Assembly: GCA_965261385.1 (NCBI GenBank)
Contig: CBDHDB010000001.1
Span: 737,145-801,144, forward strand
DNA length: 64,000 nucleotides
Reading direction: 5' to 3'
Source of the DNA: Dehalococcoidia bacterium
GTDB lineage: Bacteria; Chloroflexota; Dehalococcoidia; Lucifugimonadales; Australimonadaceae
Shown here: positions 49,595-53,054 of the stretch, piece after piece
How the letters are laid out: each line of letters opens with the position of its first letter
How positions within the stretch are numbered: position 1 is the stretch's first letter
Program-made: the position numbers and the translations under genes
The notes under the pieces: model-generated
Seen by the model: the letters and a program-made list of their open reading frames with translations, nothing else
What the model was told of the DNA's origin: nothing
Databases searched by the model: none

Positions 49595-49658
49595 ATGCCG
49601 AAGACCATCAACCGAGTCGAACTGCTGGGCCGCGTCGGAACGGACCCCGAGATGCGCT
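49595..49658 (+). CDS. ssb: ssb copy 3, exon 1 (codons 1-21 plus 1 nt)
   Basis: ATG 49595 follows the same CAAGGAGCAC leader. The exon encodes MPKTINRVELLGRVGTDPEMR, then homology to copies 1 and 2 stops exactly where GTGCG begins. Confidence 0.8.
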
Positions 49659-50165
49659 GTGCGCCGCGTCACGCGGCATAGGATTCCCGATTTAGTCAGG
49701 AGAGATTCGGAGGAAGTCTCTGGGCCAACCGACCCACCTGGCGGCGAAAGCCAAAGGGGACAACAGCATGTCGGTAAAGCGGCTACAGCCTGAAAGCGTT
49801 GTAGGGCTGGTTCCGCAAGGCCCGCGCGATACGGTGAAAGCTGGATTGCTTGAACCCCAGTTCCCAAGCGGTGAAATCGGCACCCACCGGTAGAACGCTT
49901 GCAACCCGGTGCCACTCATTACGACGGTCTGTAGCGTGGACTGTTGCACCTCCGATGAGTGGGCGATGACCGATGAGGCCTATTCAAGGGGACGAACGGG
50001 GCACCTAAGTCGTGCTATCACGTCCTATGTCAACGGAACGCGGGATTGCCTACGGGGGGAGACCCCCACGGCAACGGAGCCCTCGTAGTAGTCCGAGCCG
50101 GGGAAAGCCCGGCACATGGCGAAGGAGGGCAGGTGTCAACGACGGAATACGACAGAGAGGTACTC

Positions 50166-51941
50166 ATGATGAGAACAGCCGAAACTGTACTGAACGTCAT
50201 ACGCGAACGCGGAGAACGAGGATTGCCGCTGGAGAACATCTATCGGCTACTGTACAACCGGAACCTGTACCTGCGGGCCTACGGTCGTCTCTACTCAAAC
50301 CAGGGAGCGATGACCAAGGGCACCACCGCAGAGACCGTGGACGGCATGTCACTGGCGAAAATCAACCGCATCATCGACGAGCTTCGTTACGAGCGGTTCC
50401 GGTGGACGCCGGTGCGCCGGGTCAGCATCCCCAAACCTAACGGGACGACCCGCGCCCTGGGCATACCGACGTGGACGGACAAGCTGCTGCAAGAGGTCAT
50501 CCGGATGATTCTGGAGGCCTACTACGAGCCGCAGTTCTCCGACCACTCTCACGGCTTCCGGCCCGACCGGGGATGCCACACCGCCTTAAACGAGGTGGTC
50601 ACTCACTGGACCGGTGCCCGCTGGTTCGTCGAGGGAGACATCAAGGGGTGCTTTGACAACATCGACCACGAGGTCCTGTTGTCGGTGTTGAGCGAGAAGC
50701 TCCACGACAACCGATTCCTACGCCTGCTCAAGTACCTACTGAAGGCAGGCTACCTTGAGGACTGGACATACGGCCGCACATTGAGCGGTACGCCGCAAGG
50801 TGGCGTGGTCAGCCCCATCCTCGCTAACGTCTACCTAGACCGGTTGGACAAGTTCGTCGAAACAGTGCTCATTCCAGCCCACACCCAAGGCACAGAACGA
50901 AGGCGCAATCTCACATGGAAAGCGTTGAACAGTCAAATGTCCTATCACCGGGGAAGGGGAAACCATGCGCAGGCGTTGGGACTGCGAAAGCAGATGCAAC
51001 AATTGCCATCAGGAGACCCCAACGACCCTGGCTACCGACGACTGCGATATGTCCGCTACGCGGACGACTTCGTGCTGGGCTTTATCGGGCCAAAGGCCGA
51101 AGCCGGGCAGATCAAGGATTCCTTGGAGACATTCCTGCGCGACACGCTCAAGCTGGAGCTATCCACGGAGAAAACTCTTATCACCCACGCCACCAGCCAG
51201 GCGGCGCGGTTCCTCGGTTACGAACTCATAAACCAACAAGCCAATGATAAGCACGACCCTACTGGGCGACGCAAAGTCAATGGCCGTATCGGATTACGGG
51301 TTCCCGCTAAAGTCATCGAACAACACTGCAGCGCCTACATGGGCAACGGCAAGCCGGCACACCGCGGCGGACTCATACACGATGATGACTTCTCCATCGT
51401 GAGCAGGTCCCAAGCGGAATTCCGGGGCGTCATTCAGTACTATCTCTTGGCCCTCAATGTCTCCCGTCTCGGGAGGTTACAGTGGGTCATGAGCCAGTCG
51501 CTGACCAAGACCCTTGCGGCAAAGCACAAGACCACACGCCGTGAAGTGCTTCGACGCTATAAGAGCGTCGCACAGACCGAGCATGGGGAACGTGCCTGCC
51601 TCAAGGTCGTGGTAGAGCGGGGCAATGGGAAACGCCCACTGGAGACGCAGTTCGGCGGCATACCCCTGAAGCGGAATAGGCAGGCCATCCTCGTAGACCA
51701 ACAGCCTCAACGGTACAGGTTCCACCGCAACGAGCTTATCAAACGGCTCCTAGCGGACGAATGCGAGTTGTGCGGGTCAACAGTGGACATACAAGTTCAC
51801 CACGTCCGCGCGCTTCGCGACCTGAACGTGAAAGGCCAAGGCCAAAAGTCCGAGTGGATACAAATCATGGCCGCAAGGCGACGCAAGACCCTCGTGGTCT
51901 GCCAACTCTGCCACATGGACATCCACGCAGGGCGCAAGTAA
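50166..51941 (+). CDS. Group II intron-encoded protein: reverse transcriptase / maturase / HNH endonuclease
   Basis: RT motifs RALGIPTWTDKLLQEV, HGFRPDRGCHTAL and YVRYADDFVLG. The HNH is CELCGS..VHHVRALRDL...CQLCHMDIHAG. I chose the start at ATG 50166 (MMRTAETVL). Confidence 0.9.
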   Translation: MMRTAETVLNVIRERGERGLPLENIYRLLYNRNLYLRAYGRLYSNQGAMTKGTTAETVDGMSLAKINRIIDELRYERFRWTPVRRVSIPKPNGTTRALGIPTWTDKLLQEVIRMILEAYYEPQFSDHSHGFRPDRGCHTALNEVVTHWTGARWFVEGDIKGCFDNIDHEVLLSVLSEKLHDNRFLRLLKYLLKAGYLEDWTYGRTLSGTPQGGVVSPILANVYLDRLDKFVETVLIPAHTQGTERRRNLTWKALNSQMSYHRGRGNHAQALGLRKQMQQLPSGDPNDPGYRRLRYVRYADDFVLGFIGPKAEAGQIKDSLETFLRDTLKLELSTEKTLITHATSQAARFLGYELINQQANDKHDPTGRRKVNGRIGLRVPAKVIEQHCSAYMGNGKPAHRGGLIHDDDFSIVSRSQAEFRGVIQYYLLALNVSRLGRLQWVMSQSLTKTLAAKHKTTRREVLRRYKSVAQTEHGERACLKVVVERGNGKRPLETQFGGIPLKRNRQAILVDQQPQRYRFHRNELIKRLLADECELCGSTVDIQVHHVRALRDLNVKGQGQKSEWIQIMAARRRKTLVVCQLCHMDIHAGRK

Positions 51942-52067
51942 TCCGCAATCGCACCCGTCGGTAGTATCTGACCTCAGACAACTGAGGCCAGAGCAGGTGT
52001 AACAATGTCATTCCGCTGGGATTGATGATACACTACGAGGCATAATGCGTCCTTGGAGTGCTGATTC

Positions 52068-52445
52068 ATGCCAATAGGACCTCTGCTCTTAGCGAGTGTA
52101 CCGTGGACAGAGCTTATCAAAGCTGCTCCTCGGATGATGGAATCTGCCATAAAGCTCTACGAAAACGTGAGCGGTCGGCAACCACGACGCCCATCACGAG
52201 GTACCACCACGGTTGATGACATTCCCGCCTTGCGCGAAGACGTAACAGAACTCCAGAGACATCTAGATATGTTGGAGAGCACTGATAAAACCCAGGCCGA
52301 ATTGATCAAAACCCAGGCCGAATTGATCGCCGAGTTGATTCGGCATCAGGCGTCCTTAGCGCGCTGGATAATCGTGCCAACGCTAACCTCGGTCGTGACG
52401 GGTATCGTCGCAATAGCTGCTCTCGTCGTTGTCGTCCTACAATAA
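52068..52445 (+). CDS. Low-GC extra ORF inside the intron: coiled-coil protein with a C-terminal TM anchor
   Basis: 125 aa. A heptad region contains the duplicated TQAELIK (a 2 x 21-nt tandem repeat at 52287-52328), and the C-terminus IIVPTLTSVVTGIVAIAALVVVVL is hydrophobic. The ORF lies between the IEP stop and domain V. Confidence 0.5.
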   Translation: MPIGPLLLASVPWTELIKAAPRMMESAIKLYENVSGRQPRRPSRGTTTVDDIPALREDVTELQRHLDMLESTDKTQAELIKTQAELIAELIRHQASLARWIIVPTLTSVVTGIVAIAALVVVVLQ

Positions 52446-52628
52446 GAAGGAAAAGTAGTCCCGACATTTGCAACCATTCATGCCGGGGCCATCGGGCCTA
52501 GACTCGGTAATCCTCCCAGATAGGACGTCCCGACCCCATCGCGTGCCCCCCCTCGGTCACCCTCGCGCCCATTAGCGTAGGGTGTTGGCCGAAAAAGACG
52601 AGACCTTCCGACGTATGAAGACACTGGA

Positions 52629-52662
52629 GAGCCGGATGCGGTGAAAGTCGCACGTCCGGTTC
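52629..52662 (+). ncRNA. Group II intron domain V
   Basis: GAGCCGGATGCGGTGAAAGTCGCACGTCCGGTTC is a 34-nt hairpin with the AGC triad and a GAAA tetraloop, matching the domain V consensus. Confidence 0.85.
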
Positions 52663-52725
52663 GGAGGGGGGCCGACGGAAAAGTGCTCTGATAACTCGGA
52701 GTAACTCGCCGGCGGCCTACCCTAC

Positions 52726-53054
52726 ACACCAACGGCGGGACGGCCGTCACCCAGCTGCGGCTGGCCACCGACCGTCCTCGCCAGAACGGGGAGACGGAGA
52801 CCGACTGGCACACCGTCATCTGCTGGGCCAAGTTGGCCGAGGCCGTCAACCAGTACGTCCACAAGGGCGACCGGCTCTACGTCGCCGGTCGGCTGGCCCA
52901 GAACAGCTACGAGACCTCCGACGGCCAGCGCCGCCACAACACCGAGGTCCACGCCGCCGAGGTCGTCTTCCTCGACTCCCGCAACGGGGCCAAGGCCACG
53001 GCGGACACCACAGAGGCTGTCCCGGCTGGGCAGGCGGCCGACTCCCCCTTCTAG
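52726..53054 (+). CDS. ssb: ssb copy 3, exon 2
   Basis: The sequence resumes ..(Y)TNGGTAVTQLRLATDRPRQNGETETDWHTVICWAKLAEAV... in frame with exon 1 and ends DSPF. Confidence 0.8.

Follow-up and report, generated by a model that had tools for sequence, protein, structure and literature searches.

Group II introns have been found in conserved bacterial genes such as the DNA-replication genes of Trichodesmium and recA of Geobacillus, where they lie on the sense strand of a functional open reading frame (ORF) and have to be spliced precisely. In this study we analysed a 64,000-nucleotide (nt) stretch of Dehalococcoidia DNA (hereafter the window), in which a group II intron occupies in the same manner the third (ssb3) of three tandem ssb genes. 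However, the hosts in the known cases are chromosomal housekeeping genes, whereas ssb3 is an accessory gene of a mobile element, an integrative conjugative element (ICE) with type IV secretion. Bacterial introns mostly avoid housekeeping genes, and it is the cyanobacterial and the chloroplast-like (CL) and mitochondrial-like (ML) lineages that sometimes reside there (PMC4424553).

The closest described system is Ll.LtrB, located in the ltrB relaxase gene of Lactococcus lactis pRS01, and the intron in ssb3 is a fresh example of this well-known kind. Both introns encode a protein with the same architecture of reverse transcriptase (RT), X, D and HNH domains (LtrA in the case of Ll.LtrB), both show IIA-type exon recognition via the exon-binding sites EBS1 and EBS2 and the delta base, and both lie inside a coding gene of a conjugative element, the expression of which needs splicing (PMC6003770). 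In addition, reverse splicing of the Ll.LtrB intron particle into mRNA depresses relaxase expression (PMC6003770). The intron of the window differs from Ll.LtrB, however, in that its host gene is ssb and not a relaxase gene, its host is a high-G+C member of the Chloroflexota and not of the Firmicutes, an extra conserved ORF follows the intron protein in domain IV, its lineage occupies 26 or more sites within a single element family, and next to the interrupted gene lie two paralogues to which the guide does not fit. Of the introns in annotated plasmids, the nearest were those of Streptomyces and Rhodococcus plasmids, which carry RT/maturase genes; the best matches, to Streptomyces plasmids, reached only 64-69% nucleotide identity over part of the length.

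Our analysis indicates that the segment 49659-52725 is very probably an intact mobile group II intron of the LtrA-type/IIA kind within the accessory ssb3 gene of a type IV secretion ICE. The anatomy of the intron, the pairing of its guides with the target, the covariation among its relatives and an empty-site allele were observed directly and are described below.

Anatomy of the intron in ssb3

A preliminary description of this locus, made from the letters of the sequence, had placed in ssb3 a 3067-nt insert starting with GTGCG, ending with CCTAC and carrying an RT/maturase/HNH ORF, and we found the insert and its ORF exactly there. The ends agree with the GUGYG/AY consensus (GUGCG at 49659-49663 and ..CCUAC up to 52725), and the same ends are present in about 75 relatives. 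The G+C content of the intron is about 58%, compared to about 70% in the flanks. The position at which the similarity between ssb3 and its neighbours was thought to break needed some adjustment: colinearity does extend to 49658 and resumes at 52726, but nucleotide identity with copies 1 and 2 already ends after GAGATG (49654).

When the two exons of ssb3 were joined, they encoded a protein of 130 aa colinear with the products of copies 1 and 2, which covered the whole Pfam SSB profile (1-104 of 104) with a score of 109 bits versus 107 bits for ssb1. The exons contain no frameshift or stop, and their G+C content at third codon positions (GC3) is 0.92-0.95. The predicted ligated junction reads ..GAGAUGCGCU/ACACC (here and below a slash marks the insertion point), or, written across the exons, GAGAUGCGCU-ACACCAACGG and also GAGATGCGCT-ACACCAACGG, and translation of unspliced RNA would end at UAG 49679-49681, seven codons inside the intron. 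An intronless ssb gene in the related locus L003 has the sequence GACCCCGAGATGCGCTACACC, which is identical to this predicted junction. The same core from CCCGAG onward was present in L062, and CGCT with one or two flanking differences in L005 and L064. Thus, splicing would restore a full SSB product, as had been proposed, but the protein is not the conserved housekeeping SSB, since ssb3 is an accessory ICE gene with two intact paralogues next to it.

The ribozyme was recognised by the Rfam model RF00029 (domains V-VI) at 52627-52725 with a score of 68.6 bits against a gathering score of 40 (E = 2.2e-11, model positions 1-77 of 77). This match, the only group II intron that RF00029 detected in the window, ends exactly on the last intron base and so at the proposed 3' splice site, and it confirmed the 34-nt domain V named earlier. 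The domain VI hairpin also appeared in the minimum-free-energy fold. A permissive Rfam search of 49500-52900 yielded matches to domain V-VI models only and none to the group-II-D1D4 families; the structure of domains I-III was therefore taken from our own alignment. In the consensus fold of 28 introns, a long-range helix closes domain I, domain II is short, and domain III follows (domain I coordinates were mapped from columns 6-395 of alignment A2). It contains 136 consensus pairs, and 98.4% of the cells are paired. Double-sided changes were observed in 41 of the 136 pairs, compared to 21.6 ± 2.3 in shuffled and 3-10 in slid controls, and every helix of domains I-III is kept in the window intron. 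The proposed boundaries thus agree with a covariation-supported fold, which covers domains I-III as well as V and VI, short of the stem that closes domain IV. The single-sequence minimum-free-energy fold of domain I had z = -2.6 and was not relied on.

The intron-encoded protein matched the Pfam families RVT_1 (1e-31), Intron_maturas2 (1e-13) and AI2M-like HNH (1.7e-14); the YADD motif and the HNH cysteines and histidines are visible in its translation, and its ORF is preceded by a Shine-Dalgarno-like GAGAGG. Among solved structures the best match was LtrA, with 404 bits and E = 6.8e-120 over residues 23-586, that is, over the full length. The IIC reverse transcriptases (about 1e-40 to 5e-44) and the maturase of a IIB intron, which we take to be T.el4h (5.7e-29), matched only in the RT region, and the scores of the IIB and IIC proteins were 104-154 bits. 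The ML class of intron proteins includes LtrA and yeast aI1/aI2. This class corresponds to the IIA ribozyme (class table in PMC4424553), so that the full-length similarity to LtrA, together with the delta-delta' pairing, which is the IIA mode of recognising the 3' exon in place of EBS3-IBS3, points to an ML (LtrA-type) protein associated with a IIA ribozyme. The IIB and IIC classes were rejected on the grounds of the same similarity and of the delta-delta' covariation.

Guide sequences and the three ssb targets

The guides were located by covariation over 67 distinct intron/exon combinations, and introns paired with the exons of other introns served as the control. Two hairpin loops were hypervariable in the intron alignment, and their sequences tracked the 5' exon of the same intron. 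Across the family EBS1 paired with exon positions -1 to -6 at a mean of 5.5 of 6 positions, compared to 2.8 of 6 in the mismatched intron/exon pairs, and the corresponding means for EBS2 and exon positions -8 to -12 were 4.3 and 2.1 of 5. The delta base, located just 5' of EBS1, paired with exon position +1 in 93% of 61 combinations versus 40% of the mismatched ones; in the window this pair is formed by U49932 and A52726.

The preliminary description had noticed that the uninterrupted copies depart from ssb3 in the 3-4 nt just 5' of the insertion point and had predicted the intron-binding site IBS1 at this place. Both observations are borne out by our data. The difference (CGCT in ssb3 versus AAGC in ssb1 and AAAT in ssb2) falls at positions 61-64 (ssb1) or 61-63 (ssb2) of the coding sequence (CDS), against a background of 16 and 22 differences per 330 nt, and EBS1, found independently by covariation, pairs with exon positions -1 to -6 of ssb3. 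With ssb3 (..CCCCGAGAUGCGCU/A) all six positions of EBS1 are paired, four by Watson-Crick and two by G-U pairs, and the duplex energy is -6.1 kcal/mol. In ssb1 (..GAUGAAGC/A) none of the positions -1 to -4 pairs and the duplex energy is -0.9 kcal/mol, and in ssb2 (..GAUGAAAU/A) position -1 alone of these four pairs (-0.2 kcal/mol). At the same time, IBS2 and delta' are the same in all three copies, so that EBS2 (4 of 5 positions) and delta pair equally with each target. Thus, the stretch of IBS1 adjoining the cleavage site is exactly where the copies differ. Since EBS1 matches only the CGCU version, ssb1 (AAGC) and ssb2 (AAAU) would not serve as targets, and, by analogy with introns of the Ll.LtrB type, the EBS1-IBS1 mismatch is plausibly a sufficient reason why the intron has not homed into them.

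The same ssb codon is occupied by a sister intron in another Dehalococcoidia genome (L001/L002), where the exon reads ..GGAGAUGAAGU/A and carries AAGU. Both guides of this intron (EBS1 ACUUCA and EBS2 CUCCG) are perfect for its own exon, and in comparison to the window the changes at -2 to -4 and at -11 are compensatory, which indicates compensatory retargeting. The window copies ssb1 and ssb2 are each one mismatch away from a guide of the AAGU type, at -1 and at -2, respectively. Further intronless ssb alleles at this place carry CAGT, AAGT, AAAT or ACAT. This variety implies a natural polymorphism of codon 21 (R, Q, K, T), and at least two of the alleles have their own intron variant.

From the sequence features we infer that splicing and mobility actually occur, and the mechanism would be as follows. 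The ssb3 transcript would fold into a six-domain ribozyme, to which the intron protein, translated from domain IV, would bind as a maturase. The 2'-OH of A52719 would attack the 5' splice site while the EBS1-IBS1, EBS2-IBS2 and delta-delta' pairings hold the exons, and ligation would yield the full-length 130-aa SSB. The lariat-protein particle could then reverse-splice into DNA with the same target and copy itself in (retrohoming). Retrohoming would be limited by EBS1 to sites of the CGCU type, the choice of target being largely set by the guides.

Table 1. Coordinates of the ssb genes, the intron and its parts, and other genes of the element in the window.
Feature	Position	Strand	Basis or remark
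ssb copy 1 (ssb1), uninterrupted	48545-48940	+	Pfam SSB 5.8e-31; alignment of copies
ssb1 counterpart of the intron site	after 48608	+	..GAGATGAAGC/ACACC
ssb copy 2 (ssb2), uninterrupted	49069-49464	+	alignment of copies
ssb2 counterpart of the intron site	after 49132	+	..GAGATGAAAT/ACACC
ssb copy 3 (ssb3), exon 1	49595-49658	+	21 codons + 1 nt, placing the intron in codon phase 1
IBS2 CCGA	49647-49650	+	within ssb3 exon 1
IBS1 UGCGCU	49653-49658	+	within ssb3 exon 1
Group II intron, putatively mitochondrial-like/IIA type	49659-52725	+	3067 nt, GUGCG...CCUAC
Domain I	49664-50043	+	RNAalifold consensus, 28 introns
EBS2 AUCGG, terminal hairpin loop	49876-49880	+	49877-49880 pair with exon -9 to -12
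Delta U, terminal hairpin loop	49932	+	covariation
EBS1 AGCGUG, same loop	49933-49938	+	covariation
Domain II	50046-50074	+	consensus helices 21-25 (domains II and III), compensatory changes
Domain III	50079-50130	+	as for domain II
Intron-encoded protein, 591 aa, RT + maturase (X) + HNH endonuclease	50166-51941	+	Pfam; homologues 80-87% identical
Second (cargo) ORF in domain IV, 125 aa, coiled coil + C-terminal transmembrane helix	52068-52445	+	three homologues, dN/dS
Domain V, 34-nt hairpin, AGC triad, 2-nt bulge	52629-52662	+	Rfam RF00029 alignment
Domain VI, bulged branch-point A 52719, 7 nt from the 3' splice site	52665-52723	+	Rfam structure line
ssb3 exon 2	52726-53054	+	first base A = delta'; stop codon ends at 53054
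Serine recombinase	26252-28204
Replic_Relax (relaxase-like) protein	32585-34288
TrwB/TraG-like coupling protein	34285-36642
VirB4-like ATPase	37029-39221
Pilin	41310-41714
TrbL (VirB6)	41764-43104

The intron lineage, its cargo genes and the host element

When one genome per species was scanned, 240 relatives turned up, of which the best 80 were retained. These 80 are all from metagenome-assembled genomes of Dehalococcoidia, SAR202 or Tepidiformaceae; the amino acid identity is 73-87% (77-87% for most), and the intron RNA is 83-87% identical to that of the window over domains I-III and mostly 90-96% over domains V-VI. The relatives occupy at least 26 distinct sites, nearly all in genes of this ICE family, for example the helicase Walker A (GEMGTGKTF/I) and DEVH (DEVHE/YKG) motifs, the methyltransferase motif NPPYD/W, RadC (YQGNV/NS), the primase zinc finger (CPFHDEAEGS/FTVY), a second ssb site and a pilin gene. 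Inside sense-strand ORFs lie 23-24 of the 26 sites, which implies that insertion into ORFs is the rule in this lineage and not the exception. The earlier remark that such insertions are uncommon thus holds for bacteria in general (PMC4424553, PMC6003770), but not here.

At all 23-24 ORF sites the intron splits a codon after its first base (phase 1), leaving that base in exon 1, and in this phase the exon frame runs onto an invariant UAG at intron nt 21-23. The phase-1 rule could result from the stopping of ribosomes at this codon, or from a preference for A/T at -1/+1 in genes with high GC3. At about 19 sites the ligated exons of family members align gap-free onto intronless homologues in the window, the matching positions of which are all empty (41516, 46019, 47605, 49137, 49252, 53475, 54096, 55449, 55494, 56034, 57391, 57580, 57789, 58042, 58102, 59743, 60402, 60771 and 62800). 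The genes at these empty sites encode the pilin, primase, Rad52, SSB, RadC, methyltransferase, helicase and E2- and ThiF-like proteins. The lineage is apparently undescribed and has apparently been retargeted by EBS changes to at least 26 sites; our literature search did not bring up any publication about group II introns of Dehalococcoidia or of ssb genes. In the phage collection only short fragmentary matches were found (at most 7% of the query), and a near-identity search of the flank against plasmids gave no match.

The cargo ORF in domain IV is conserved and is additional to what the preliminary description reported. Its protein had only three database homologues (L083 4001-4357, L082 4001-4354 and L084 4001-4357), which are 62-79% identical in the alignment, and each is encoded just before the domain V-VI of a group II intron. 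One of them belongs to a sister intron of full length that occupies a primase gene, the other two to intron fragments with a truncated 5' end. The ratio of nonsynonymous to synonymous substitution rates (dN/dS) of the ORF is 0.2-0.34. This value and the linkage of the homologues to introns indicate that the cargo ORF is a genuine gene carried along by the intron. Its tandem duplication of 21 nt (2.2 copies, 52283-52328) adds the seven residues KTQAELI in comparison to the homologues, and the comparison of the protein with Pfam and PADLOC gave no informative match.

Other members of the lineage carry other inserts. Of the 76 relatives analysed that are full-length, 24 carry unrelated inserts 420-1090 nt in length at the same place between the stop codon of the intron protein and domain V (L006, L008, L022-L026, L034, L037, L040, L042, L045-L047, L049, L050, L052, L054, L057, L059, L060, L062, L066 and L077), whereas most of the compact members have this stop no more than about 15 nt from domain V, or their ORF enters it. 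The insert ORFs in domain IV are mostly in the sense orientation and encode lipoproteins (with the lipobox LTACGG), multi-pass membrane proteins and a weakly DUF429-like protein of 217-235 aa; one antisense ORF encodes a DUF805 protein. A second insertion slot is located near the base of domain I, after CCUAUGUC, which corresponds to position ~373 of the window intron (near 50031), where the insert is absent. Eleven relatives use this slot (L001/L002 (3520-3865), L017, L019-L021, L039, L061, L070, L075 and L078), and their inserts of 260-750 nt appear by eye, with L001 alone translated, to encode small antisense membrane proteins. In the searched literature we found no description of passenger genes in natural group II introns, although this does not prove that the finding is new.

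The left end of the window is chromosomal (dnaX at 12985-14967), and the ICE extends from about 26 kb onward. Its serine recombinase is probably the left-end marker of the integrated element. A Type ISP restriction-modification enzyme of 1060 aa adjoins this large serine recombinase (window 23060-28204). Downstream of the conjugation genes listed in Table 1, the element carries in order a primase, a Rad52-like protein, the three ssb genes, RadC, a DUF6094 methyltransferase, a helicase and E2- and ThiF-like proteins. With the intron masked, its nucleotide identity to the flanks of the Dehalococcoidia loci is mostly 72-85%, in line with a host from this group. The three tandem ssb units (window 48480-53130) have periods of 524 and 527 nt, to which Tandem Repeats Finder was blind at its maximum period of 500, and a G+C-rich hairpin (GGGGCCGCTTCCCCGACGGGGGAGCGGCCCC) lies behind each of them; a single ssb stands at this place in related elements. 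No sigma-70-like promoter was found, and terminator-like sites were no commoner than in shuffled sequences, which is uninformative for a Chloroflexota host.

An intronless version of the same element was sought by exact-protein look-ups, in which ssb2 led, among the matches read, to a 10-kb contig with the window's own stretch, and the RadC protein gave no record. A metagenome scan for the exon 1/intron junction (GARATGCGCT/GTGCGCCGYG) returned 19 contigs, none of them in ssb and none like this intron by blastn, so that these matches are unrelated to it. In these JGI metagenome contigs (L086-L104) GA(A/G)ATGCGCT stands directly before GTGCGCCG(C/T)G, and they may represent another intron family with a similar IBS1.

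Alternative explanations and significance

Several observations weigh against the interpretation of the ssb3 intron as an active element kept out of its neighbours by EBS1. In EBS2, A49876 is mismatched with G at -8, G-U pairs make up two of the six in EBS1, the class assignment is built on similarity to LtrA and on delta-delta' covariation rather than on phylogeny, and the presence of two intact paralogues may make the selection to keep ssb3 spliceable weak. The copies differ also at -20 and -17, which are positions where LtrA-type proteins contact DNA, and IBS1 may therefore not be the sole barrier to homing. The intron could be a dead relic and ssb3 effectively a pseudogene, with SSB supplied by ssb1 and ssb2 and the EBS1 match recording the original insertion only. 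The loss of ssb3 would be tolerated owing to its intact neighbours, the imperfect EBS2 and EBS1 pairings would fit decay, and inactivity or truncation is reported for most intron copies in bacteria (PMC4424553). However, both intron ORFs are intact and retain the catalytic motifs, the domain V-VI score is well over the Rfam threshold, the helices of domains I-III are all preserved in the window, and the exons have kept both an open frame and their high GC3, which makes a relic very unlikely. It is somewhat less improbable, though still doubtful, that the difference in IBS1 is incidental and that the intron is absent from ssb1 and ssb2 because of its recent arrival, low mobility or protein recognition at -20/-17. 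Codons 21-22 would then simply be polymorphic, as suggested by the R, Q, K and T found at codon 21 of related intronless alleles, by the fact that ssb1 and ssb2 differ from each other there too, and by other multi-nucleotide difference clusters between the copies (CDS 256-258 and 277-278). Against this, the mismatch removes all (ssb1) or all but one (ssb2) of the four pairs beside the cleavage site, the tracking of the exon by EBS1 across the family implies that this pairing is clearly required, and the L001/L002 intron with its AAGU-matching EBS1 indicates that the site is usable once the pairing fits.

The history of the copies bears on the route by which the intron was acquired. The window ssb copies show 10-12 differences per 135 nt among themselves, compared to 29-43 to any other allele, and are thus recent paralogues. 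The copy-3-specific differences lie mostly near the junction (CDS 27, 45, 48, 61-63, 114, 117 and 120), and only 277, 278 and 327 are farther away. This clustering (Fisher p = 0.01) raises the possibility that ssb3 received the intron not by reverse splicing but through homologous recombination, in which an ssb allele of another element supplied the intron together with a short piece of flanking exon that included CGCT. Agreement of ssb3 with the CGCT allele of L003 at 27, 45 and 48 would fit such an event, and as the copies are otherwise near-identical, the CGCT target would need a local origin had it not been imported. Nevertheless, the clustering is weak when the IBS1 bases are left out (p = 0.07), the exon 2 differences at 114, 117 and 120 are unlike L003, and an intron that blocks gene conversion between the copies would give the same pattern; we therefore consider acquisition by recombination unlikely. 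A co-conversion tract was rejected as a finding, since the clustering without the IBS1 bases is only marginal; the pattern fits either co-conversion during recombination-borne acquisition or the blocking of homogenisation between the copies by the intron.

A bolder interpretation, which we put forward with little confidence, is that the ssb array is the element's counter-measure to the intron and that the lineage is an undescribed specialist of the coding sequences of one ICE family. In this case, ssb1 and ssb2 may be back-ups, and their changes at -1 to -4 may shield the DNA from retrohoming and the mRNA from reverse splicing. The marks of the specialist lineage would be the strict codon-phase-1 rule, the sense passengers in domain IV and, in some relatives, the antisense passengers in domain I. 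If this were true, the passenger genes would make the intron a gene-carrying retroelement and not a minimal one.

The ssb array represents a natural specificity experiment, in which three near-identical adjacent targets differ in the four bases beside the cleavage site and at -20 and -17. It offers a clean test of the share of EBS1-IBS1 pairing in group II intron homing and immunity, and the matched guide-target pairs at 26 sites would be useful for deriving high-G+C targeting rules and for targetron design. Moreover, the lineage bears on how introns persist in coding sequence, given its use of one codon phase at nearly every site and its residence in a mobile element, and, to judge from the conserved cargo ORFs, group II introns in nature can transport passenger genes.

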